Positions 46,163 to 60,820 are shown, counted from the stretch's first letter. The stretch: 64,000 bases of DNA from Candidatus Binatia bacterium (GCA_963664395.2 OY761159.2:1376001-1440000), one strand, 5' to 3'. Notes: generated by a model from the letters alone, not told the origin. Translations and numbers: made by a program.

Positions 46163-46396
46163 ATGATTGAATCCTCCGTCACGAAGAAGGGGCAAACGAC
46201 ACTGCCCAAGCCTGTTCGGGAGTCACTTGGCCTGCAAGCCGGGGACCGGGTGCGCTACGTCATTTCCGACGGCGAGGTGCGCATTTTGCCCGTGCGTCCC
46301 ATCAGTCGGCTGTTCGGCGCGCTCCAGCATAACGGTCCCGCCGTCACGTTGGAGAAAATGGAGCAGGCCGTAGCCGACGGGGCATGCGAGGGATGA
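46163..46396 (+). CDS. AbrB/MazE-type antitoxin (VapB)
   Basis: SSVTKKGQTTLPKPVRESLGLQAGDRV. Confidence 0.88.
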   Translation: MIESSVTKKGQTTLPKPVRESLGLQAGDRVRYVISDGEVRILPVRPISRLFGALQHNGPAVTLEKMEQAVADGACEG

Positions 46397-46785
46397 TCGC
46401 ACTCGACACCAACGTCCTCGTGCGCTATCTGGTCCGCGACGATGTGCAGCAGGCAGACGCCGCCCGCGCACTCCTGGAGTCGCTTACGGCCGAACGTCCC
46501 GGCTACGTATGCCGTGAGGTGACGGTCGAACTCGCCTGGGTGCTGGAACGGGCCTATGGCTTCTCCCGTGACCGGATTGCGACGATATTGGAAGAACTCG
46601 TGGCAACCGAGGGGCTCGTGGTTGAGGAGGCCAACGATGTAGCCCGTGCGGCGTTCCGGTATCGAGCGGGTGGCGCTGGATTTTCCGACCTGATGATCCT
46701 GGCGGCGGCCGAACGGTCCGGAGCCCAGCCGCTGTACACCTTCGATCAGAAGGCCGCACGACTTGAGGGTGTGTCGCTGCTGTAG
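46393..46785 (+). CDS. vapC: PIN-domain toxin VapC
   Basis: IALDTNVLVRYL, ELAWVL, GFSDLMI, TFDQK; ATGA overlap with the antitoxin. Confidence 0.88.
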   Translation: MIALDTNVLVRYLVRDDVQQADAARALLESLTAERPGYVCREVTVELAWVLERAYGFSRDRIATILEELVATEGLVVEEANDVARAAFRYRAGGAGFSDLMILAAAERSGAQPLYTFDQKAARLEGVSLL

Positions 46786-46836
46786 CGTCCAGGCTAGACC
46801 GGTTCTCGATAGTCTCTCGCCGTGCAGGGGGCTCCT

Positions 46837-46887
46837 GTCATGCCGGACGTGATCCGGCATCCAGAGGGCGGAGGGGTCGGGAGCCTG
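46837..46887. repeat. Truncated REP-like palindromic element
   Basis: GTCATGCCGGACGTGATCCGGCATCCAGAG...GGGAGCCTG, near-identical to the left half of the element at 60553. Confidence 0.75.
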
Positions 46888-46918: not shown

Positions 46919-47602
46919 TCAGATATCCTGTTCGAGGATTTGGCCGTTATCCCTCAGCCAGCTTCGCGCCTTTTCCAGCGTTGGCGCATGCGTCCGAACG
47001 ACATTCCAGAATCGGGGGGTATGATTTGCTTCGAGCAGATGGGCGAGTTCGTGCACGATGACGTAATCGACCACGAACATGGGCGCTTTGATCAATCGCC
47101 AGTTCAGGTTCACGTTGTTCTTGACAGTGCATGAACCCCAGCGGAAACGATTGTCCACAATCTTCGCGCTGGCAAACTCCACCCCGAGCATAGCCGCAAT
47201 GGATTTTACTTCTGGAAGAATCCTCTCTTTCGCACGGTTGACGTACCAGTTGCGAAGCACACTTTGTCGTTCGCCCGCCAGGGAAGCCGGGATGAAGAAA
47301 CGCTGCTCGAAGCGTATCTCCGTCGAGTCGGTCGGGATGACTTCAATTTGGTACTCACGGCCAAGATAGAGCGCGGATTCACCGCTTACCAGCTCCTTAC
47401 CAGGCGGATGAGGCCGTTCTTCGTACTTCTGGGCATGCTTCCTCTTCTCATAAATCCACTGACGTTTCGACTCAACAACTTCCCGGATCGTCTCTTCGGA
47501 CGTGGACTCGGGTGCATGAACGACGACGCTCCGGTCCCGTTCGACTGTTATCGTCAGCTTCCGACGTTTCGGCGAGCGTTTGATGGTGTAGGCCGTATCC
47601 AT
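46919..47602 (-). CDS. YgjP/DUF45 (M48-like) metal-dependent hydrolase associated with type I R-M
   Basis: RWGSC, LNWRL, DYVIVHELAH, HTPRFW. Confidence 0.88.
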   Translation of the reverse strand: MDTAYTIKRSPKRRKLTITVERDRSVVVHAPESTSEETIREVVESKRQWIYEKRKHAQKYEERPHPPGKELVSGESALYLGREYQIEVIPTDSTEIRFEQRFFIPASLAGERQSVLRNWYVNRAKERILPEVKSIAAMLGVEFASAKIVDNRFRWGSCTVKNNVNLNWRLIKAPMFVVDYVIVHELAHLLEANHTPRFWNVVRTHAPTLEKARSWLRDNGQILEQDI

Positions 47603-47604
47603 GC

Positions 47605-50600
47605 TTACTCCGCATAGAGAATGATGTCATTATTCTTTTCCGCGATCTCCATCACGCGGCTGATTATTGTGTTGTACTTCTTCGTGAGATTTGGCAGCTT
47701 CACAAACGACGGCTGGAGAAGCGTCTTCTGAATCTCGGCCTTCAACTTGTTGCGCGCGGGAATGGCCTCCCAAAATCCGACCAGCTTCAGCTCCTGCTCG
47801 ATCACCAGTGAGACACTCTGCGTCAACGCAACCAAGTGGCTGATTTTGTCGTCCTCGCTCAATCCGTAACGTGGACTCGTTTCCGCCACCCTCAATTCGT
47901 CAGCGCCCTTAACCATGTCCACGTCAAACAGCTCGCGTCGAAACATACGAAAGAACGGCATCTGCTTTTTGCGGTGCAGCCCGTAGGTCGGCTCCTTGTT
48001 CGCGTTGACGATACGCTGCCGCAGTTTCTCCAGTTCTTCGTAAATCCTTTTCCAGTTATCCCGGAACTCTTGAAATATCTGCGCGAGTGCTTCCGCGAAG
48101 GACGCTTGCAAGTCCGGATCGTCATCCAACTCAATATCGAGGTGGTGGCGGATAGCGTGTTCTACCTCTGCCGCTTTGGTTTTTGTACGGCGGCGCTGAT
48201 CGACGTTCTTTTGGAAGTCCTCGTCCAGAATCGAAATCGGCTTGACCTTCTGATCAATGCTCTTCGACTCCAGGTATGTATCCGTGATTGCACGCAGCTT
48301 CGGCGGGATGCCTTTCATGCTGAGGCGTTCATCTCGAAAGTGCTTGCCGGCGAGGACGTTGATTTCAGCGAGGGCGTTGTAATCGTTCATAAACGCCAAC
48401 GCTTGCCGCGCGGGGAAGACGAGGTTCAGGCATTTGGTAAACTTCTTGAACGCCTGCATGTAGTCAAAGCGCAGGTCCTCGTCATAAAACACATCATAGA
48501 AAGCGTCGTGGTCCGTCAGGTCCGTCAGGCCATGCTGTTCAAGCAAGGCCATAATCGCGGCATGGCTGTCCTCAAGGTTTTGCAACTCCTCTTCGGGAAA
48601 GCTGAGGGCGTCGATAATTTTCTTTTGTTCTCGCTCGTCATAAGCGTCGATGGCTTTCCTGAGATGATGACCAATGCCGACGTAGTCAACCACGAAGCCT
48701 TTGTCCTTCGTGTCGCCTTCAACTCGGTTCACCCGAGCAATGGCCTGTAAGAGGTTGTGGTCGGTGATGACCCTATCCAAATACATGACCTGTTCCACGG
48801 GAGCATCGAAACCCGTGATGAGCATGTTGTTGACAACGAGGATGCCCATGTCCCCGCTGACGCCTTCATCTTCACTCCCGAAGGCCTTCTTAAAACTCTT
48901 GATACTGCGTTCGTGCCTGGTCTGGTCAGCGTGTGCCTTGAGGTACGGCCGGTCGTTGTTTTCGCTAGAGATCACGACATCGGTTTGCAGCCTCTTTAGC
49001 TGCTCCAGGTCAAGGCCGTTCGGGTTTGATGTTTCCAACTCGGCAACGGCTGCACCCAGGGCGGCGTCGAGGTGCTTCTTGTAGCGTACCGCTGCTTCGC
49101 GCGATGTGGCCACCACCTGGGCCTTGTAGCCGTTCGGAAATACATGGGTCAGGTAGTGCTTGACCATATCCTTGGCCTTGGCTGCAATCGTGGGTTCTGC
49201 CTCCAGGTAGGCATCTCGGGACCCGTAGCCCAGGATTGCCATCCTTTGCTGAAGGTCGTGGTCGCTGAACGCATCTGCAAACGCCGCATCCATGCCTTCC
49301 TGGTCGGATATTTCCGCGTTGTGGGTGCGGCCCTCGTAGACGATCTCCAGGGTGACGCCATCGCATATAGACTCTCGCATGGTGTACTTGTCGATGTACT
49401 CACCGAAGACGCGTTCGGTCTTGTCAATCGGCGTGCCGGTATAACCGATCTTTGTAGCGTTCGGGATGGCCCTATCGAGATTCGCTCCGAGCTTCTTGTA
49501 TTGGGAACGATGGGCTTCATCGGTCATGACCAGGATGTTGGGGCTGTCATTGAGTTGTGGGAAGGTTTCGTTCAGATCCGCTTCCTGGAACTTGTGGATC
49601 ATGGCCATGACCAGGTCCGAGGTGTCGGCCCGGAGCAGGTCCTTCAGTTCGCTGATCCTATTGGCCGTCTTCACCGTGAAACCGATACTTTGGCTGGTCT
49701 CGCTCAATTGGTCTTCGAGCTGCGTCCGGTCGGTAACGAAGACCACTTTCCAGTTGGCCAATTGGGCGTGGCGGTACATTTCACGCACCATGAACATCAT
49801 GGTGAGCGATTTGCCCGAGCCCTGGGTGTGCCAGATGATGCCACTCCGTTCGCGCGGGTTCCTGCCCTCCAGCAATCGCTTCACGGCCAGCTTGACCGCG
49901 CGAAACTGCTGGTAGCGTCCGACGATCTTGATGGTCTGCCCTCTGTCGTTGGTCGAAAACAGAGTGAACGTGCGGATAAGATCAAGCAGGTTGTTTTTGT
50001 CCATCATCCCGGCGACCAACCGCTGCTGGTCGTTTGGGCTGCCTGCGCCATGATCGAGATCGTTGACCGTTCTCGGATGGGGGTCGGTCCAGCGGTAGAA
50101 ATGCTTTTCACTATGCGTGGTGATCGTCCCGAACTTGGCCTCCTGGCGACAGGTGGCGACCACAAACTGATTGAAATAAAAGAGCGGCGCACTTCCTTCG
50201 CCTGTGACACCACGCTGCTCGCTGTAGCGCAGCATCTGGTCGATGGCCTCGGGGATGGCGTCCTTCACCTTGGGCGACTTGCATTCAATCAGGACCACGG
50301 GCAGGCCATTCACGAACAACACAGCGTCCGGGATGATGTGGTGCTCGGTGCCCAGGATACGGACCTTGCATTGGCACACGGCAATAAAGCGATTGTTGGC
50401 GCGATTCTTGAAGTCGATAAAGCGTACGGTCGGGCTATTCTCGCCCGTCTGCCGGTTCTCGTTGACGCTGGTGTTCTCCAGAAGGAGGCGAAGGACGTGC
50501 TTGTTGTTCTCGATTAACCCGCCGGGGGAGCTCGCGGTGAGTTGCCTGACGACTTCTTCGACCTGATCGTCTTCCAGCCACGGATTGATGACTGTGAGCT

Positions 50601-50784
50601 GTTCTCGCAGTACCGGCAGCATGACGACTTCGGTAAAGTTCTCTCGAAACGTATCAGCGGGCTTCTGCTGCTTGTCGGTCAGGTCGATGATCTCCCAGCC
50701 CAGGCCGTGTAACTGCTCAAGGAGGGGCATCTCGACGTGGTTACGTTCGTCCATGCGAAGGGACTGCGCCCTCATAGTCATCAC
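47605..50784 (-). CDS. hsdR: Type I restriction endonuclease subunit R
   Basis: PD...IECK, WHTQGSGKS, DEAHRSQY, TGTP, MLITGFDAP, QAIARVNR. Confidence 0.95.
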   Translation of the reverse strand: MMTMRAQSLRMDERNHVEMPLLEQLHGLGWEIIDLTDKQQKPADTFRENFTEVVMLPVLREQLTVINPWLEDDQVEEVVRQLTASSPGGLIENNKHVLRLLLENTSVNENRQTGENSPTVRFIDFKNRANNRFIAVCQCKVRILGTEHHIIPDAVLFVNGLPVVLIECKSPKVKDAIPEAIDQMLRYSEQRGVTGEGSAPLFYFNQFVVATCRQEAKFGTITTHSEKHFYRWTDPHPRTVNDLDHGAGSPNDQQRLVAGMMDKNNLLDLIRTFTLFSTNDRGQTIKIVGRYQQFRAVKLAVKRLLEGRNPRERSGIIWHTQGSGKSLTMMFMVREMYRHAQLANWKVVFVTDRTQLEDQLSETSQSIGFTVKTANRISELKDLLRADTSDLVMAMIHKFQEADLNETFPQLNDSPNILVMTDEAHRSQYKKLGANLDRAIPNATKIGYTGTPIDKTERVFGEYIDKYTMRESICDGVTLEIVYEGRTHNAEISDQEGMDAAFADAFSDHDLQQRMAILGYGSRDAYLEAEPTIAAKAKDMVKHYLTHVFPNGYKAQVVATSREAAVRYKKHLDAALGAAVAELETSNPNGLDLEQLKRLQTDVVISSENNDRPYLKAHADQTRHERSIKSFKKAFGSEDEGVSGDMGILVVNNMLITGFDAPVEQVMYLDRVITDHNLLQAIARVNRVEGDTKDKGFVVDYVGIGHHLRKAIDAYDEREQKKIIDALSFPEEELQNLEDSHAAIMALLEQHGLTDLTDHDAFYDVFYDEDLRFDYMQAFKKFTKCLNLVFPARQALAFMNDYNALAEINVLAGKHFRDERLSMKGIPPKLRAITDTYLESKSIDQKVKPISILDEDFQKNVDQRRRTKTKAAEVEHAIRHHLDIELDDDPDLQASFAEALAQIFQEFRDNWKRIYEELEKLRQRIVNANKEPTYGLHRKKQMPFFRMFRRELFDVDMVKGADELRVAETSPRYGLSEDDKISHLVALTQSVSLVIEQELKLVGFWEAIPARNKLKAEIQKTLLQPSFVKLPNLTKKYNTIISRVMEIAEKNNDIILYAE

Positions 50785-50800
50785 TCCCGTAGCACCAGCG

Positions 50801-51088
50801 TCACGAAACCGCGGCTGGCACCTCGCCTTCGATCACGCGCCCTTTGACGCTTTCCACTACCGAGATGTCGTATCCGCTTTGCAGGTTCATCCAGAATGCC
50901 GGGCCGGTTCCAAGGTAGCGGCCGAGGCGCACGGCAGTCTCGGCTGTGACCGCCCGTTCGCCCCGCAGGATGGCGGTAATCCGGTTTGCAGGTACCCGGA
51001 TAGCGAGTGCAAGCCGGTTTGCGCTCATGCCTCTCGCTTCCAGTTCCGCCCGCAGTACCCGACCGGGATGTGTCTTCACTCGCGTCAT
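50801..51088 (-). CDS. higA: HigA-family antitoxin (no higB partner)
   Basis: THPGRVL, LALAIRVPANRI, AVTAETAVRL, FWMNLQ..YD. Confidence 0.9.
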   Translation of the reverse strand: MTRVKTHPGRVLRAELEARGMSANRLALAIRVPANRITAILRGERAVTAETAVRLGRYLGTGPAFWMNLQSGYDISVVESVKGRVIEGEVPAAVS

Positions 51089-51137
51089 AGCCTGCCTCCC
51101 GATTTCGTCCTTAAACTGCTCTGAAGATGGCGGTCAC

Positions 51138-51539
51138 TCATGGCGACTTCGCTTCCTGCAGAACCTGAAAACCGAGCACCTCCGCAACGGCGCCTTGCCG
51201 GGCGTCGAGCGTGGCGAACGAAAGACTGCCAGATTGGGGAGCGACATAAAGGGCCGTCGCGAGATGCCATAGGTCGGCGCCCCGCAAGTAGGCTGTTTCG
51301 AGCACTGTTGCGAACTCGGGAGCAAGCGTCCTATCGGGCAGAATCCATTCGATCCCCGCGATCGCACTTTCTTGAAAGATCAGATTCTCGCGGGCGAACG
51401 ACGCCCGCAGTTCGGCTTCGAGCAGGTTTGAAGAGATCAGGCGAGTGAATTCGTCCAGCCGCTGCGCGTGCGCTGCCGCACCCGGTTCGTCGAAGGCGAT
51501 GGCCGCCAACACCGAGGTGTCAACGTACGCGATGCTCAT
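51138..51539 (-). CDS. vapC: PIN-domain toxin VapC
   Basis: AYVDTSVL, LRGADLWHLATA, TLDARQ. Confidence 0.85.
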   Translation of the reverse strand: MSIAYVDTSVLAAIAFDEPGAAAHAQRLDEFTRLISSNLLEAELRASFARENLIFQESAIAGIEWILPDRTLAPEFATVLETAYLRGADLWHLATALYVAPQSGSLSFATLDARQGAVAEVLGFQVLQEAKSP

Positions 51540-51814
51540 TCGCCGCGCTCGGCGAGAAACCTCGACAGTGCGCCGGGCCGTCGTTCAACCGGTCCGAATG
51601 TCCTCCTCGGGATGGCCGAGCGAACCAGGGAGCCGCTACGTTCGAGGTCCTTCAGCCGCTCGTCGAGCGTCGGCTTTTGCCGCTCCCGGATCGAACGGAT
51701 TTCTGCCACTGGTTCTCCCCGATAAGAGACGGTGACGGTCTTGCCTTCGCGCACTTGCCGAATGACCTCGGAAAACCGCGCCTTTGCTTCGTAGATTGAG
51801 TAGTTGAGCGCCAC
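51536..51814 (-). CDS. Phd/YefM-type antitoxin
   Basis: SIYEAKARFSEVI..V..G..V.VSYRGEPVA; palindrome ACTAGCTAGT (51823-32) upstream. Confidence 0.85.
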   Translation of the reverse strand: MALNYSIYEAKARFSEVIRQVREGKTVTVSYRGEPVAEIRSIRERQKPTLDERLKDLERSGSLVRSAIPRRTFGPVERRPGALSRFLAERGE

Positions 51815-51870
51815 GGCGTTACACTAGCTAGTCAGACTGGTCATAGCAACCGCAATTATCGGCGCTGTCA

Positions 51871-51916
51871 GCAGTACCCGACCGGGATGTGTCTTCACTC
51901 GTGTCTTGGTATTCAT
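51871..51916 (-). pseudogene. Truncated second copy of the higA 5' end
   Basis: [15 protein letters not shown] starts overlapping the hsdS stop; 31 bp identical to 51052-51082. Confidence 0.8.
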
Positions 51917-53175
51917 GCGCCACCCTCTGCATCAGTCAGCAACGGAACGACAGACACCTTGCCGGTGAGGAGGTCTTGCATCAGGGCAGCTTTCAAATGG
52001 CTCTGCTTATTCAGTTCAGCTTGCAAGCGCGATATCATCTCAGTGTTCGCATCTAGCACTTTTGTAATATGGTTCTGCTCGTCGAGAGGGGGACTTGCCA
52101 CCAGAAGGCTTCGTATCGTAGGGAGGTTCAACCCGGCTTTCGCACCGGATTCATTGTGCCTTTCAAACTGGGATTGACCTGCTCGACTTTGAAGGAACCA
52201 GCCAACGAACCTTTGATCTACTTCGGGATCGGTAATCCGCACTAAAGCGATATGCTGATTGACATAGCCCTCTCCAAAGCCTTCAGGTATTACGCCAATC
52301 ATACCGAGGTCCGCCGTGACAGATATCAAAACATCACCGGGTACAACCAAGGTACGCAATCCCTCGGCGCGCACTGGTGGCCGTACAAAAACTGTATCGT
52401 CAAATCGTAGATTTATGTGGTCGCGTGTCAGGTTTCCAATGCGGAGAAATGCAGCACCTTCATCGCTGTAATACTTCGCCCACCCTCGTGCGCCACTCGT
52501 GACAAAATCCGAAATGGAATCAATGTTCTGGATATTCCACTCTACCGGAATTCGCCCTAGCGGCGAGTCCTTGAATTCGTGGGTTTCCTCAGAGCGGAGG
52601 TCTCCGTTTTCGTCGATACCGCGCGTGAGCAGGTCTTGCATCAGGCCGGTCTTGATGCGCTGTTGCTTGGCGATCAATGCCTCAGTCTGCTCAATGGCTT
52701 GATCTACTGTCGAGAGTATTTCGACGATTTTGGATTGTTCAAGCCTGCCACTAGGAGCTTCTATTGACCACTTGCTCAATTCAGACGAATTAATTGCCTC
52801 GAAGGTTGAACCCTGTGAAGCGCTTCGAAAATTTGCCTCTTGAAATTTAAGAAATTGCTCCAAATACCTTTGATTAACTCTTGTTCCAATGATGGCAGCC
52901 AAACCTCGGCCAATGATGTAATCCCGATCAGCGATGTTAAGTCGCCCGACTGGAGCTCGTACACTGAACAAGATCGAGTTTTTGGGAGCTACTTTCTTTG
53001 GTTGACTACAATAGACTGCATGGGTCGGAAACCGACTTCCAAATTCAGCGCACCCCTGTAGGAACGGTAAGCCAATTTCTTCATCGGAATAAAAATTTGA
53101 TTCAGGGGATTGCCCCATGATTAAATTCGCAACCTGTCCAAGAGGCTCATTTTTCCAACTTGTTCGCTCACTCAT
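51913..53175 (-). CDS. hsdS: Type I R-M specificity subunit S
   Basis: Two TRDs, [42 protein letters not shown]; lower GC. Confidence 0.95.
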
Positions 53176-55856
53176 GCTAAGTACCCCAACCCTCCCATAA
53201 ATCCATTGAGGGCCTTGAGCGTTGCTCCTCGCGCCTCCTCCATCTCTTGGCTGCTCACCGCGTACTTGTCCCACAGATTCTCAACGCCTGAAACCAGATG
53301 CCGCATCTCTGCATTGAGGTAGCGTTCGAGTTCGGTGCCGGCGATGTCGTAGAGCTTCTTGAGGATAAGGTGCTTGGCTTCGTCATCGGTTAGCTGGCCG
53401 TTGATTGCTTCCAGTACCGTGTCAGTCTTGGCGATGCGTTCCTCAAGTACAACCTTGTCTTTGTTTAAGGTATCGATCTTTTTGTTGTCGGTCTTGTCGC
53501 GTGGGTCCAGATTCGTAAGCTGGTCTTCGATCTGCTGAATGAGTCCCCGGCTTTCGGCTTTGAACCCTTCGCCGCCAAGACGTTTAAGTTGGATTTTGAG
53601 TTCCAATTCGTTGGTCTTATTCTTCGACAAGGCTCTGCTGACACTGATTTTATTTTCGATCTCCTTTATGGCGGCATCCTGTGCCTTGAGGTCATTACGC
53701 TCTCGCTGGGCGGATGCGCCCGCACTATCCTTCAGGTCATCTATGAGGGTTTTCAGAGCCTTCTTGATGACTGCGGCCGTAACCTTTTCGTCTTCTTCGG
53801 GTTCGTAGGAAGCCACCTCTTGCGCAGTTTCTACAGCCTCAGCCAGCTCGGTTTGGAGTTCGTTGATGTGAGTTTCCAATTCCTCAATGGCGTCCGCCTC
53901 GCTCTGGAAGAACTCGGTGATCAGATATTCGTCCGGGATGAGCGTGTGGTGCCAACCTAGTGAGACAATGGTTTTCAGGTCGTAACGATTTTCCTGCCAC
54001 CAGTTGACGAACACACCGGCGCTCTTGAACTCGTCCAGCACGCCCAGGGGAACGAGCTTGTCCTTGAGTGTGGTCAAAAGCTCATGCCGTACTTCCGGCA
54101 TTTTCCGACCGCTGTGATTGGCGCTCTCAAGCTCGGCGAAGTCGTCACGGGCTACGCTCCACCATTCCTTGAGGGCATTTCGGTGGGTCTCCAACGTATG
54201 CCCGACCGATTGGTCCACTTCGATGATCTCTTTAATATCGGCCTTGCTTGCAATCGACTCCTTGAATGTGAGGTATCCCGGTCGATCCGGCTGGAACAGC
54301 GTTTCACATTGAAGGCCAAACTTGTTGAAGTTGTCGCTTTGTGCCGAAACCTCACTTTCAGGGATGCCGCCGATCAGATGGGCCTGTACGTCTTCCGGTT
54401 CCGGCTCCGGGGTATTGTCTACATAGCGCCGAATGTTCAGATTGTAGTCGTTTTTGTCAGCGATTTCCGACTTGTCCACGAGTCGGCTGTATTTTAGAAT
54501 CTCGCGTTTGTTGGAGAACACGAAGTCGATTTTCTCCACGTCCTCCGGGCGCAGTTTGTTTTGATTCTTTCCTTCGGCATACTCCCGGTCCGCATTGATG
54601 AACAAAATCTTGCCACGCAAGGCATCGGGTTTGTTCTTGTTGCAAACGAGCACACAGGCCGGAATACCGGTCCCATAAAAAAGACCCTGCGGCAAACTGA
54701 TGATCGCCTCGATAACGTCGTCGTTTATCAACCGCTCGCGAATCAGCTTCTCTTTGCCACCGCGAAAAAGCACACCATGGGGCATGATCGTGGCCATGTG
54801 GCCGTCGCTCTTGAGGCTGGCCAGCATGTGCTGGACGAACATCAAATCGGCTTTCTTCCCGGTCTCTGGACACCACTCGCGGAAACGGTTGGTGAATTTC
54901 ATAGTGGCGCGGCTGTAGTTCTGCGAGAATGGTGGGTTGGCCAACACCCGGTCGAACTTGCGTATCTGTCCGTTTTCCAAAATCTGCGGGTCCTCCAGGG
55001 TGTCGCCGTTCTCAATGGTGAAACTCGTGATGTTGTGGAGGATCATATTCATATTGCAGATTGACCACGTGGTCCCGTTGGAGTCCTGCCCGTAGAGGGC
55101 CAGATTATTGGCGTTCTCGCCCCGCTCCTCGACGTACTGGTGGGCCTGGATGAGAAAGCCACCGGAACCCGCGGCTGGGTCGTATATCTCATTCCCTTCT
55201 GTGGGCTTGGTTAGCTGTACCAGCAGGCGCACCACCTCCGCAGGGGTATAGAATTCACCGCCTTTCTTGCCGGCGCTGTCCGCGAAGTACTTAATCAGAT
55301 ACTCGTAAGCCGCCCCAAGCAGGTCGGGGAACTCGAAATTGTCGTTGACCAGGACGAAGCCCGGCTGGTTGAAATGATCGAGCAGCTCTTTCCACTTCTG
55401 ATTCTCTATTTTCGTCCTGCCCTTGGCCGCGTTGAAATCAATGTTGTTCTTCAGCACCCCGGCCAGCGAGTCGTTCGCATCCTCGACCGCAGCAAGGGCT
55501 TTGTTCAGCATGTTGCCGATATCGTCTTTGAGGTCCTTGAGCGCCGGCACCAAGTCACCGTTCTCATCCGTCCATGTCTCGTGCCAGCGAGCACGATCGG
55601 GAACGAAGAACGTCTCGCCGTAGGCGGTCTTGTCCTCAACGAGTTGCGCCAGGAGATCAGGCTGGTCCTTGAGGTGGGCGTATTCCGCTCGTACCTGCTC
55701 GCGCTTGCGGTCGAACTCGTCAGACAATCGTTTCAGGAACAGCATACCGAAGATGAACTCCTTGAACTCGGAGGCGTCCATCTTGCCGCGCAGGATGTCG
55801 GCAGCTTTGAACAGGAAGGATTCGAGTTGGGCTAAGGTGATTTTTTCAGTCTGCAT
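53172..55856 (-). CDS. hsdM: Type I R-M methyltransferase subunit M, long form (894 aa)
   Basis: [43 protein letters not shown], then a coiled-coil-rich extension. Confidence 0.95.
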
Positions 55857-55857
55857 A

Positions 55858-58800
55858 TTACGCGACATTTGATGGTGAGGATACTTCCTCTGCCATAGCT
55901 TTAAGACTATTACGATACGCCGCTGTGAGCGGGGATCTGACTGCCTCGGAAGCTGCAAGGATGAGCTTCGCGATAAAACTGCTGTCATCTACGGGTATCG
56001 CCAGAACTTCCTCAATGAGGGGTACAGTCTGCCGAGGGCTGGAAAGACGAAACGTTTCTGCGCTTAATATGCGTTTCCAACCAGTCCTCAGCCAAGCGGC
56101 GAGACGGGGTGTGAGGAAAGGCTTGAAATTGGATTGGTTGATCCAATTGAAGAAACACAGTCCTGCCATCCAGAAATAATATGGTTCTACGTACTCGTTT
56201 TGAAGAAGCACTTTGATGATGCTGACGACTGTTTGGTCCAATTCCGCGGATAAGGCTGACTTCTCATTCCAATGATCGAATACAGATTTGCCGGGAAACG
56301 GGCCTGAGAATTGACCCTCCAGAGCGGTTTTAAGCTCCGTCATCGCCTCCGGCTGAGGCTGGCCTGCCAAGGCGGAACGGATGCCATAAGCGAGGATGGC
56401 ATCTTTTGCCATCCGTTCGGTCGTAGAATCAAATGGCCCATGCTTGTCCAGCATCGGCACCTGCCCTCTTTCCAGCGCCAACGGATCGAATGTCGCCCGG
56501 AGTCGATCGGCCTCCTTTGACAAATATACAGCGATTTCGACGTATGTCGTGAAGTGGGCGGCAAATCCGCTGGTATCGAGCCTGGCGATATCTGTTTGTA
56601 CCATTTGCGTGCGCAGGTTGACCTCCATCACCGGGATCGGACCTTGCGCCAGCAGATCGTCAAGTGCCACCGCGATTCCCACGTCGAGGCCGGTCGCGGA
56701 TTCCGCCTCCGCTAACATGTACCAAGCAACATCAATGTGTCCAAGCGGGAGTTCCCGGATTGCAGGTAAGGGATCGGGATTGCTGCAGGTTCCCGCTTCC
56801 ATTGCGATTGGCCGCCCGCCAATCTGGACGTCGCTCCCTGTGATGCGGGATTGCGCCCAAAGTACGGTATGGCGAATAACGCGGTGGCAGTATGCAGCAA
56901 GCAGTGTTGCCTCTGGGTCAATCTCCGCCAATGCATCTAACGCTTCTACGAGGCGTGTGAGCGCCCGGCCTGCATCCCCAGTTTCGAGAGCGGCTACCGC
57001 CGAATCGGCACCCAGGCCCACCGCCATCGCGTCCATGTCCACGCTGCGAGCCAGTCTAGCAGCGCTTTGCGCATCAAGGAACCATTCCTCCGCTTGCGAC
57101 CATTCGTCGCATTTTGCCGCGCTGATAGCCGCCTCGCGCAGCGCGAACGCGCGCTCAACCGGACTGTCGCCGCCAACCTGATCCGCGATGCCATGGAGGA
57201 TTTCGAGGGCTGTCCCGTGTTCATCATGGCGATAATGAACTTTAGCTATGGCGCGACTGAGGATTATATCGTCCCCATAGGCTGCTCTCGCCTCTGCAAG
57301 AACTGCCAAGGCACCTTCTTTGTTGTTCTGATACTCATCCAGCATGATCGCCTGGGCCACCGAACATTGGAGAGAAAGAGGACGAATGACCCAGTTGTGC
57401 GTCTTCTCCGCCATTCGTTGGTAGCGCTTCGCCGCATCCGTAGCGTCGAAAGCCTCGCTGTGCCGCTGTGTCTCCCAAGGGCCGTTGATGAATAGGGAAT
57501 AATCGGAAGAATCTCTGTCTACCGGCGTCAGCAAGAGCGACCGCTCGTCCGCGTCGAGCTTATCAAGTGCGTTGATGATACGCTCCAGTCGCTCTACAGA
57601 AGCAAGGTGGGCACTTCCCACACTGAACAGCATCCCAAAGAAGTTTGCACCCGATGTATCGAAGGCACCTTCAACATTGGCCACTATGCCTTGCAAAAAT
57701 TCGTCGGCCTCTATCAGGGCTTTGAAGCGAAGTAGGAGAGCGACCCAGTCATTGAGATAGTTCGCGATACCCATCGTGCCGAGCACGGCGAATGCTGCCA
57801 TCGCTTCCAAAGCGCGTCCTATCTCACCTTTCGGTTCCGGCAGGCTGTCGATTTCATTGAAGAGTGCCGCCACAATAGCGGAGATATTGTTTCCTTCATC
57901 CGTTGTGGCAACCAGTTTGAATTGCGCGAGCCGAAGTATCCCGGAGGCAAAAGAATCCTCAGGGTAGACTGGTACATCAGTGGAAAAGAGGCGGAAGAGC
58001 AAGAGGTGTTCCGCCAGCTTCTCAACCGGAGAGTCAGCCAACAATACACTAAGGCCAAGCATAGCCAAAATTTGGGGCATCTTGCCTGCAATCGCATGCA
58101 TCATAATTGTGTCGAAATCGCTCGCGTCGATCGTACCTTTTCCGAACATCTGGACCGCAATGGTCTCATGGATGCGCCTTCGCTCATCAGGGGACAGCAT
58201 CTCAGGCCCAAAACTTCTCGCAAGTGGTGAGACCCGGAAGACGTCTCTGCCGACGGCTTCGAGCCACGGCCCGACCAACTGGTCCAGGCATTCACCAGCT
58301 TGGGACACCACTGGAGAAATTTCGCCGATGGTCAACGCCAGTGACCGATTGAAGCGTCCGGTCGCAATACTGAGTCGATAGAGAAGACTTCGCGTTCCTT
58401 CGGGAAGCGTGGACACTAAGCTCCGCCGGGCCGCTTCGCGGGCGGCATCGGTGTCATCGGACGACAAGCCTCGGCTGACGACAGCTTCAATCTCTTCGAC
58501 TGGCCATCCCCGCGCCGCAATACCGGTTACAAAAGCATGTGTAAGCTGGGGATGACCGCAAGCTCCCGCCAAATAGGCGAGACGCCCCCACCTAGCTGGG
58601 TCCCCTCCGTTGTCAAGGACAAGCGCGCGGGCTTCTTCCTCCGAGAAGTAGGGGCAATCCACGACGCACCCCCGGTCGAGGCCGATTTCAGTCCGCGTCT
58701 TCAAGGAGGGTTGCTGGTAGCAGATAATGAGCGCTTTGCGGTAGCGACGCAGTAGAGCTTCAACGACGCGCGCCAGCGACAATGTAACGCGCGTGTCGTC

Positions 58801-59979
58801 AATATGGTTCAGGTCTTCCAGAATCAATACCGAAGGAGGTAAGCCTCCAACACGGGCAAACACCATATCGAGCCGGCGGCAGGTTTCGTCTGCGTCAGTG
58901 TTCCGAAAGTCCACTATGAAGAATGTACCGGCCCGCGCGACGGCAACCGCCCGTGACACGATGGACTTGCCAAGGCCGCTGCCACCGACGAGCACGCCCA
59001 CACCGGAATTATCAATCGCATCCGTTACTGCCGACTCGACGGTGCTCCGGGCGATCATCCCCTGCGGAGCGGGAAGCCTAGTGCCGTCAATAAGCCAGCC
59101 TGTTTCTGTGACGGAAAGAGGATTGCCTGTGCCCAGACCTCCGCCGAGCACTCTCGCCAAGCCTGAGGCAAGTTGGGCAAGATCGTCTATAGAAGCGCGT
59201 GGTAGTGAAATACGGGTTGCCGTATCGATAACTTGGTAAAGCTCAGCCCGCGTAAGAACGCGTTCACTGGTCGTCCGGACAATACTTTTTTCCAGCACCC
59301 GATAGACCAAATGATCGACAAGTCCCTGCGCCTCTTGAGAGGAAAGTCTAAATAGGTCGCGGCCGATGACGACCAGCCGCGCTTCTAGCTCCTGACGAAG
59401 CGTTGAGAAATTTGGTTGACCGCAATCCCAGTGGATTCTCTCAATGAGGTCATGGCGGAGTGCTGCGTCGTCGCGATTCTTAGAGAACGTTCTTACGGAT
59501 TCATGGAATTTATCGCTCTCCAATATTGTGCGGAGAGGCGAGAGGTCCGCCCCCGCGGCGACCTCTTGCCAATACTTCAGCCCGGCCATCCCTGCCGGAC
59601 GGTCAGCAACAGCTTGTTCTGTTCCAATCTCCGATGTCGTGAAGAAACGGAGGTCAACCTGAATAGCGGGATTGCGCTCGGTAAGATCGATAAACGCAGC
59701 GACCGCATTGCGGACGCTTGGGCTATTCAACGTGATTGATCCGGACCTTTCTGTGTCCTTGACCTGAACGGCGTCGAGCGCCTGCCCCGCTATGATCGCA
59801 TAGTCTTCCGCGACTTCCAGGAAAAGCCGCCCATGCTCGTCGATATCGAGCCATGCCAGCGCGGTCGCTAGGGCCTGATACGCATACCCTCGCAGAGAAT
59901 CGACTGCTTGTCGCGCCGTGTCGCCCTGCGGGACAAGGCCAGCGGAAGGACCTGCGTTGAAAAGATCGTGAGAGTTCAT
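55858..59979 (-). CDS. Putative defence protein: Cap4/DUF4297-like PD-(D/E)xK nuclease + P-loop NTPase + helical/TPR-like C-terminus
   Basis: N-terminal LRGYAYQ...EVAED...QVK; Walker A GGSGLGKS; Walker B LILEDL; GHPQL (GxP-like); long Ala/Leu/Glu-rich helical tail. Confidence 0.7.
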
Positions 59980-60105
59980 TATCAGCATTCCTGAGAGCAC
60001 AGCTCGAAACTAGCGCGGATGTATCACAAAACATTAGTTTGGTCTCAATCGCCGGTGAGTGCTGATGAAGAAGCTTACACGCGGAGCCCCAATCCTGATG
60101 TTAGC

Positions 60106-60438
60106 TCACTCGAAGTGTGTGAACCGTAGGACTGAATACACCACTCTGCCTTCCCGCAGGGCGGGCTTGATGATTAGCGCGTGGCTATCCTTGAATCGCT
60201 CTACATCCTCGGGGGAGACTACGATTGCATCAACCGCAGCGCCGACCCCATGCAGCTTCCGGTAGATCCGAGCCATAAGATTGAGCGCATCCGCCTCCTC
60301 CTTTATGATAAGCAGGTCAACATCGCTGTTGGGACCCATGTCGCCCCGAGCCGCAGACCCGAAGAGAATGATCTTCTCCGGCTGGGCCGTCTCCACAACG
60401 CGCCGGATGATGTCATCCGATGTCTGTCTGTCGAGCAT
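60106..60438 (-). CDS. Minimal nucleotidyltransferase (MntA-like antitoxin), HEPN partner missing
   Basis: PEKIILFGSAARG...SDVDLLI...EGRVVY. Confidence 0.85.
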   Translation of the reverse strand: MLDRQTSDDIIRRVVETAQPEKIILFGSAARGDMGPNSDVDLLIIKEEADALNLMARIYRKLHGVGAAVDAIVVSPEDVERFKDSHALIIKPALREGRVVYSVLRFTHFE

Positions 60439-60552
60439 TGTTCGATGCTGCTCCAGCCCTCTTTGACTGGCTCTCTTCAAGAGAACCAAAGGAATAGCTC
60501 CTAAGTATATGAAAATCGTAGTCTTCGCTCAACGAATCGGCCCGCTCCGCTC

Positions 60553-60628
60553 CCGTCATGCCGGACTTGATCCGGCATCCAGAGGCCGGGGCTGGGAGCC
60601 TGGATTCCGGCTTTCGCCGGAATGACGG
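60553..60628. repeat. Complete REP-like palindromic element
   Basis: CCGTCATGCCGGACTTGATCCGGCATCCAG...CTGGATTCCGGCTTTCGCCGGAATGACGG; nested inverted repeats. Confidence 0.8.
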
Positions 60629-60674
60629 CAGGGACCGGCTGGCTATACGGAATCGTAAATTGATCCATATACGA

Positions 60675-60744: not shown

Positions 60745-60820
60745 TGGCTCCTCGGGTTGGACTCGAACCAACAACCTATCGGTTAACAGCCGATTGCTCT
60801 GCCAATTGAGCTACCGAGGA
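60745..60820 (-). tRNA. tRNA-Asn(GTT)
   Basis: TCCTCGGTAGCTCAATTGGCAGAGC-AATCGGCTGTTAACCGAT-AGGTTGTTGGTTCGAGTCCAACCCGAGGAGCCA. Confidence 0.97.

Follow-up and report, generated by a model that had tools for sequence, protein, structure and literature searches.

A stretch of 64,000 nucleotides from Candidatus Binatia bacterium (OY761159.2:1376001-1440000), here called the window, carries a long open reading frame (ORF) immediately upstream of the type I restriction-modification (R-M) gene hsdM. This ORF of 1373 amino acids (aa) is labelled BIG, and all window coordinates are counted from the first letter of the stretch. Downstream of BIG, on the same strand, lie hsdM, hsdS, a toxin-antitoxin pair, hsdR and a gene of a YgjP-like metallopeptidase; upstream lie an MNT-type gene, a tRNA-Asn gene, recR, ybaB and dnaX. 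BIG is likely an autonomous single-gene Avs-like sensor-nuclease of an unnamed family, residing in a cargo slot of a defence island. The gene and its predicted parts, including a C-terminal region resembling tetratricopeptide repeats (TPR), are the following.

55858..59979, minus strand: BIG, 1373 aa, with a Cap4-like nuclease, a STAND-like NTPase and a TPR-like putative sensor (ORF, ATG with AGGA, family conservation)
59200..59922, minus strand: Cap4/DUF4297-type PD-(D/E)xK nuclease domain, about residues 20-260 (LmuA match, DUF4297 profile alignment)
58120..59097, minus strand: NTPase module with a nucleotide-binding domain, a helical domain with the GHP motif and a winged helix, about residues 295-620 (motifs, model, Foldseek)
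55861..58119, minus strand: all-helical TPR-like region, about residues 621-1373, the presumed sensor (model, TPR solenoid matches)

By the ORF list and the translation, the frame is open on the minus strand from 60000 to 55858. The ATG at 59979, with AGGA 9 nt before it, gives the protein of 1373 aa. The stop codon occupies 55858-55860 and the ATG of hsdM is at 55856, so that the junction reads ...GCG TAA T ATG CAG ACT..., with 1 nt between the two genes; a first-pass annotation of the window had described exactly this, an ORF of about 1370 aa ending at 55858 and hsdM starting one base later (TAA-T-ATG). Judged by sequence conservation, this is no chance ORF but a real gene: a word-seeded protein search with BIG yields 523 proteins at E<=1e-3, and a profile of residues 290-1373 matches 3158 of 1.84 billion cluster representatives at the same threshold, 1238 of them at E<=1e-30. 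The representatives stand for clusters at 50% identity, which puts the family at 1238 such clusters or more (E<=1e-30). The best 120 of the 523 proteins are almost all 1355-1406 aa long, 52-100% identical to BIG, and unnamed or called 'hypothetical'. Among the best 150 representatives, 112 have at least 1280 aa; the match to the NTPase-plus-sensor profile begins near residue 220-330 in the representatives listed, and therefore a domain of similar size precedes the NTPase throughout.

The N-terminal domain can be assigned firmly, at the level of motifs, to the Cap4/DUF4297 type. The motifs are G31-Y32-x-Y34-Q35, E55..E58-D59 and Q72-V-K74. A profile of the first 270 residues, compared with PDB, finds the DUF4297 chains 8xav_G (E 6.5e-4) and 8ziq_A (E 2.2e-3), and in the alignment with 8xav_G the BIG motifs GYxYQ, ExxED and QxK stand opposite RGYCYQ, IECIEDVDV and AIQCKY, residue for residue. 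The best library match of this domain is the PADLOC model of LmuA (PDLC03848, residues 23-253, E 1.8e-13), and among 48 diverse family members LmuA is matched by 33, DUF4297 by 33 and Pfam Cap4_nuclease by 11. BIG itself has no match to Pfam Cap4_nuclease at E<=0.01, and it scores 15 bits with NCBIfam DUF4297_antiphage, the cut-off of which is 300. Positions G31, Y32, Q35, E55, E58, D59, Q72 and K74 are invariant or nearly so across the aligned BIG homologues. Two sets, one of 24 homologues (52-87% identity) and one of 48 sequences (24-73%), show the same degree of conservation for the motif residues of the nuclease, the Walker motifs and GHP taken together.

The NTPase module contains the Walker A motif GGSGLGKS (residues 332-339, window positions 58963-58986), in which G332xxGxGK338 is invariant, the Walker B motif LILED389, the Asp of which is nearly invariant, and the motif G475-H-P477, invariant or nearly so among the homologues. 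In the AlphaFold model of residues 1-700 (predicted local distance difference test, pLDDT, 81.4; predicted template modelling score, pTM, 0.74) the pLDDT is mostly 85-95 over this module, and helices at 447-536 are followed by a helix-helix-hairpin winged helix at 545-583. The top Foldseek ranks of the model are taken by Apaf-1 (E 2.3e-7), CED-4, the Avs3 chain 8dgc_B (E 5.9e-7), MalT, resistosomes of plant nucleotide-binding leucine-rich repeat receptors (NLRs), and a bacterial STAND-TPR protein. Pfam matches among the 48 members are AAA (32), AAA_22 (29), AAA_16 (15), nSTAND3 (15), nSTAND6 (3), nSTAND1 (3), nSTAND5 (2) and NACHT (1).

The model of residues 620-1373 (pLDDT 90.8, pTM 0.83) consists of helices only. 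In structure comparison it resembles Pins/LGN (Z 15.7 and 14.3), domain III of MalT (Z 12.2) and receptors of the Rap/PlcR type; these are generic TPR proteins, no solved Avs sensor is among the matches listed, and the comparison barely probed the C-terminal 300 or so residues. The approximately 800 aa of helical repeat-like sequence in the first-pass annotation thus become approximately 750 aa of TPR-like helices. Its other readings of the protein are supported as well: the G(Y)xYQ...ExxED...QVK stretch is a Cap4/DUF4297 nuclease motif that aligns with solved DUF4297 chains, the intact Walker A, the Walker B and the GHP motif are each where it had located them, and the three-part effector-STAND-TPR architecture agrees with the motif alignment, the Foldseek ranks of the NTPase and the TPR-like C-terminus.

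Homologues of BIG were collected from 66 genome loci, found with an alignment as the query (a single-protein query found none), and from 79 metagenome loci, of which 44 have at least 3 kb of flanking sequence on at least one side. The genome loci belong to Binatia, Terriglobia, Latescibacterota, Gemmatimonadota and Alpha-, Beta- and Gammaproteobacteria, and the spread is patchy over at least five phyla; among 60 genomes of relatives, including 27 of the same genus, none carries BIG. Seven full-length copies reside on plasmids, and no relatives of BIG were found in phage records. The ORF is intact, with at least 1300 aa, in 47 of the 66 genome loci. In three loci (L003 10001-15331, L011 10001-15240, L019 4985-12478) the homologue is broken up into several ORFs and is 1.1-3.4 kb longer than an intact copy, which suggests insertions or decay.

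Neighbouring genes in the related loci were taken from crude ORF calls, and the loci are not independent of each other. In ten of the 11 closest loci, genes of R-M, AbiV, HicA, Xre-RES, McrBC, ThsB-TIR (Thoeris), AAA_21/DUF4276, reverse transcriptase, transposase or integrase are found nearby. In 18 of 53 further loci one or both flanking ORFs match a PADLOC model at E<=1e-8, four of these 18 being near-identical islands; examples are SIR2, Hhe/PDC-S37, PD-Lambda-4, LmuB, PD-T7-1 and a CBASS 4TM effector. When all ORFs within 6 kb were clustered, no neighbour family was present in more than four of the 66 loci.

Two of these neighbourhoods have features of their own. In L027 (14076-18023) a full-length PD-Lambda-4_A gene directly follows the homologue, forming a tandem of two large sensor-type genes; Avs8 is equated with PD-lambda-4 in the abstract of the bioRxiv version of Lee et al. 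In L004 and L006, both from metagenome-assembled genomes (MAGs) of Latescibacterota, the genes DUF1156-(ORF)-DUF499 are found downstream of the homologue together with AAA_21, DUF4276 and MNT(-HEPN) genes, a shared set that may represent a multi-gene methylase-bearing defence operon.

The family could also be thought to have no immune function and to consist of STAND/AAA+ signalling or DNA-processing proteins with a nuclease-like domain, serving housekeeping or a mobile element. Public records call its members merely 'hypothetical protein', 'AAA family ATPase' or 'tetratricopeptide repeat protein', neither flanking ORF has a PADLOC match in 35 of the 53 loci, and no copy was found in phage records, all of which would suit such a role. 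We nevertheless regard it as very unlikely, given the invariant Cap4/DUF4297 nuclease motifs, the patchy distribution with none of the 60 relatives carrying the gene, its repeated embedding among defence and mobile genes, and the architecture shared with Avs3 and Avs7, for which immune function is experimentally shown according to the available text of PMC13581612. The BIG gene is very probably defensive.

The surroundings of BIG in the window comprise the following features.

60745..60820, minus strand: tRNA-Asn (GTT) between recR and the island
60106..60489, minus strand: MNT-type nucleotidyltransferase (Pfam Polbeta/NTP_transf_2, NCBIfam MntA-like)
55857..60135, minus strand: inserted cassette of 4279 bp, formed by about 156 nt of upstream sequence, BIG and one base, in place of a HEPN gene (breakpoints against same-genus loci)
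53172..55856, minus strand: hsdM, 894 aa, starting 1 nt after the BIG stop (Pfam N6_Mtase 1.1e-105, HsdM_N; PADLOC)
51913..53176, minus strand: hsdS, its start overlapping the hsdM stop as ATGA at 53176 (Pfam Methylase_S, PADLOC)
51138..51814, minus strand: Phd-PIN toxin-antitoxin cargo in the slot between hsdS and hsdR (Pfam; Phd 51536-51814, PIN 51138-51539)
50801..51088, minus strand: HTH_3 (Xre-type) gene upstream of hsdR (Pfam; 95% identical in L002)
47605..50784, minus strand: hsdR (Pfam HSDR_N, SWI2_SNF2; PADLOC)
46919..47602, minus strand: gene of a YgjP-like (DUF45) metallopeptidase, the last gene of the operon (Pfam)

The downstream order given in the first-pass annotation, hsdM-hsdS-(toxin-antitoxin cargo)-hsdR-DUF45, is reproduced by Pfam and PADLOC. 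All three hsd genes are intact, with full-length Pfam and PADLOC matches and without internal stops. HsdM is long for its kind: the Pfam domains stop near residue 484, leaving approximately 400 residues beyond unassigned, and the whole length matches the PADLOC MTase_I model PDLC03031. The operon is followed by an ORF of 201 aa (46255-46860) that has no Pfam or NCBIfam family and is shared at 99% identity with the same-genus genome G006. At the other side of the island stands the tRNA-Asn gene, and tRNA genes are classical integration sites. A dispersed repeat, about 90 nt long and with a hairpin at its core, occurs at 60540-60640 and 46831-46871; it has 36 matches in the genome of the window and extreme depth in metagenome contigs, and its copies (41 nt, 93% identical) flank the whole island from MNT to YgjP.

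Comparison with the same genus shows how BIG came to abut hsdM. The same hsdM, at 83-92% identity, is present in nine same-genus genomes without BIG, and the type I R-M operon is typical of the genus. The locus of G006 is syntenic (dnaX-ybaB-recR-MNT-hsdM-hsdS-hsdR-YgjP-orf201, MNT being 97% identical) and lacks BIG; G014, also without BIG, has the order MNT (94%)-HEPN-hsdM, where 6 nt separate the HEPN stop from the hsdM ATG. The homology of the window to both ends at 60136 (...GTGGTGTAT) and resumes at the hsdM ATG at 55856; between these points the HEPN gene is gone and a segment of 4279 bp stands in its place. In relatives the operon begins with an MNT-HEPN pair, and as read from these breakpoints the cassette replaced the HEPN gene of this pair. 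The TAA-T-ATG junction is the 3' edge of the cassette, because the cassette took the place of a gene that already abutted hsdM.

Contigs of the public metagenome run X2 span both edges with no differences from the window, one across the BIG-hsdM junction (55818-56285) and one across the MNT-BIG junction (59798-60193). A third contig joins 55848 directly to 60136, skipping 4287 nt, and may belong to another, related strain or species of that sample. In the Latescibacterota MAG loci L003 and L006 the BIG homologue is preceded by an MNT gene and by the initial 40-45 codons of a HEPN gene. The MNT protein of the window has lost its HEPN partner, and its C-terminal tail differs from about residue 119 on; in G006 the HEPN gene was also lost, by a separate deletion, and MNT is about 20 nt from hsdM. 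The 156-nt stretch preceding BIG has no blastn match in the other loci, and about 60 nt of it loosely resemble L006 in an alignment only.

The slot between hsdS and hsdR is variable too, being occupied in same-genus relatives by Phd-PIN-HTH, by Phd-PIN or by nothing. In the window, Phd-PIN is bracketed by 35-nt direct repeats (51052-51086 and 51871-51905, 97% identical), which duplicate the 5' end of the HTH gene and leave a short remnant ORF overlapping the hsdS stop. The repeat looks like a scar of cassette insertion into this slot.

The first-pass annotation had taken the hsdM junction as a sign of translational coupling and proposed that BIG perhaps guards the type I R-M system: it would sense inhibition of R-M, for example by anti-restriction proteins of the Ocr/ArdA type, and then fire its nuclease, as PrrC does for EcoprrI. 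PrrC lies in the EcoprrI type I R-M operon. In line with this, BIG forms one operon with hsdM at 1-nt spacing, three related arrangements combine a family member with this R-M family (in the window, in L002 and in L011), and other R-M types flank some members: in L001 the gene is directly preceded by one for a Type ISP enzyme, and the near-identical islands L051, L053, L054 and L056 have a Type IIG/DrmMI-like neighbour. These R-M genes stand among many other genes of defence, as expected for defence islands. The survey of homologue neighbourhoods for recurrent hsdM adjacency (tblastn with the operon proteins) points in the other direction: window-type R-M is found in two of the 66 genome loci, L002 and L011, and is absent from the other 64 and from all 79 metagenome loci, 44 of which have 3 kb of flank or more. 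Weak, distant helicase-like matches to hsdR in L019 (25% identity) and L065 (27%), with no hsdM, were not counted.

In L002 and L011 the identities to the window are 75% for hsdM, 87-95% for HTH, 76% for hsdR and 65-67% for YgjP, but the BIG homologue is located between the hsdS and HTH-hsdR genes and not before hsdM, so the position relative to the hsd genes varies; L011, having the Phd-PIN pair before hsdM, is the mirror image of the window. Moreover, the nine same-genus genomes keep the operon without BIG, the junction is explained by the HEPN replacement, no PADLOC PrrC match falls on BIG, and its domain architecture is, we presume, unrelated to that of PrrC. A guard of this kind is highly improbable, and the proposed coupling to R-M is not supported: in the loci surveyed, linkage to type I hsd genes is not conserved, and the junction is explained by cassette replacement. 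BIG in front of R-M is a layout common in defence islands, not a new coupled system, and the link to R-M is local and no trait of the family.

A weaker form of the link would leave the mechanism of BIG autonomous and let selection favour co-regulation with R-M in one transcriptional and translational unit, either as layered defence or as a means of stabilising the cassette, the loss of translation through BIG lowering HsdM. At the 1-nt junction hsdM is probably translated by coupling to BIG, as judged from the sequence, and was probably coupled to HEPN before (ancestral spacing 6 nt); the coupling is plausible because the hsdM ATG is preceded by no Shine-Dalgarno-like sequence and the two genes leave no space for a terminator. 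No terminator-like site is found between BIG and hsdM, and defence systems regulated together with the type I R-M operons that contain them are in print (DarTG2 in RRDM, going by the available text of PMC12255303). Selection for such co-regulation is, however, unlikely. Co-transcription and coupling are predictions, the public runs listed with the locus including no RNA run; the promoter and terminator scans stay at the level of shuffled sequences (9 vs 7.3 expected and 17 vs 15.7 expected); the arrangement is rare in the family; and the loose resemblance to L006 upstream of BIG may point to a separate BIG promoter. On the favoured interpretation, BIG and hsdM would be associated by co-expression inside a cargo slot, not by mechanistic dependence of BIG on R-M.

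A more speculative proposal sees more than chance in the recurrence of the family beside methylase-bearing systems. Here the cassette would be exchanged at conserved 'landing pads' of R-M-led islands, and coupling to hsdM would tie the methylase supply to an intact sensor, so that its loss unbalances R-M and is selected against; alternatively, the trigger of BIG would be an anti-restriction protein. The cases behind it are the type I operons (window, L002, L011), Type ISP in L001, Type IIG/DrmMI in L051-L056, the DUF1156 methylase operons of L004 and L006, and, as landing sites, the MNT-HEPN modules of the window and of L003/L006. We give this proposal only a very small chance.

Several observations weigh against the interpretation of BIG as an autonomous Avs-like sensor-nuclease. 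No Avs model of PADLOC-DB v2.0.0 matches BIG or any of the 48 members at E<=0.01, which at the same time agrees, within this library, with the first-pass statement that BIG is not a named Avs type. Unlike in Avs7, where effectors are swapped, no other N-terminal effector is seen among the best 150 representatives. In the AlphaFold model the catalytic stretch 57-79 has pLDDT below 50, and the VIA-align comparison of the 1-700 model is dominated by the NTPase domain and barely probes the nuclease fold. In the same comparison the classical AAA+ proteins PAN/Rpt and Vps4 reach Z 12.6-13.3 over about 213 residues, level with NLR NRC4 (Z 12.2 over 284 residues, covering 302-608), and the top Pfam and PDB sequence matches of BIG are AAA/VCP-like; because of this, the assignment to STAND and not to another AAA+ clade rests on the domain order, the motifs and the Foldseek ranks, from which the module may be called STAND-like with the clade not fully settled. 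Approximately two thirds of the immediate neighbours in the 53 loci match no defence model. The R-M-like genes flanking homologues, namely Type ISP, type I (L002 and L011) and Type IIG/DrmMI, make a looser affinity of the family for R-M neighbourhoods conceivable. Finally, the defence role of BIG, its trigger and its nuclease activity are predictions.

By analogy with SeAvs3/Avs3 and SeAvs7/Avs7, as they are presented in the available text of PMC13581612, the sensor-nuclease would act as follows. The TPR-like region would bind a conserved phage protein; autoinhibition would then be released, allowing nucleotide-dependent oligomerisation; the assembled Cap4 domains would cut double-stranded DNA without sequence preference; and phage replication would be stopped at the cost of the cell.

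If this interpretation of BIG is correct, its family is a large group of Cap4-armed pattern-recognition receptors, with at least 1238 clusters in several phyla, and lends itself to the screens by which triggers of Avs families are now sought. Cassette turnover in defence islands is also cleanly illustrated by the locus: close relatives have the same type I R-M operon with different cargo at two slots, the cassette breakpoints are resolved to the base, and both forms are present in one sample (run X2). It was the idea of an R-M guard that made the locus look exciting; as this idea is unsupported, no new kind of system is claimed.

Among known systems, Avs3 and Avs7 (SeAvs3, 8dgc; SeAvs7, PMC13581612, as far as its available text goes) are most similar to BIG in the order of a Cap4-type nuclease, a STAND or STAND-like NTPase and a long TPR-like sensor, and in being single genes in defence islands. 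The chain 8dgc_B is among the top Foldseek matches of BIG residues 1-700, whereas at the sequence level Avs3 is not listed at E<=1 in profile searches of PDB sequences. BIG is also shorter (1373 aa vs about 2000 aa for Avs3 in 8dgc), and its sensor matches only generic TPR proteins. The combination of Cap4 nuclease, STAND and TPR is an established kind, represented by Avs3 and Avs7 in the available text of PMC13581612, and no name for the BIG family is given in the searched libraries and records. By sequence the family corresponds to no Avs type of PADLOC v2 and to no solved chain. It may well be included in the 2026 census of 589 STAND clades, for which Cap4-bearing proteins were among the seeds according to PMC13581612.

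The nuclease of BIG resembles those of HerA-DUF4297 and of Lamassu: the DUF4297 chains 8xav and 8ziq share GYxYQ, ExxED and QxK, and LmuA is the top library match. Unlike in these two systems, the nuclease of BIG is fused to an NTPase and a sensor of its own, and no HerA or LmuB partner gene adjoins BIG in the window (Pfam, PADLOC). An LmuB-like neighbour is present in one of the 53 loci (L042). Membership in Lamassu was rejected, as there is no LmuB partner beside BIG in the window.

As a defence gene inside an hsd operon, BIG is comparable to DarTG2 in the RRDM island of enteropathogenic Escherichia coli (EPEC), described in the available text of PMC12255303, which calls the slot between hsdS and hsdR a likely recombination hotspot. 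This slot holds Phd-PIN in the window and the BIG homologue in L002 and L011. Unlike PrrC, BIG gives no indication of sensing or needing R-M, and, unlike both the DarTG2 and the PrrC cargo, BIG of the window stands at the 5' end of the operon, before hsdM, in the place of HEPN.

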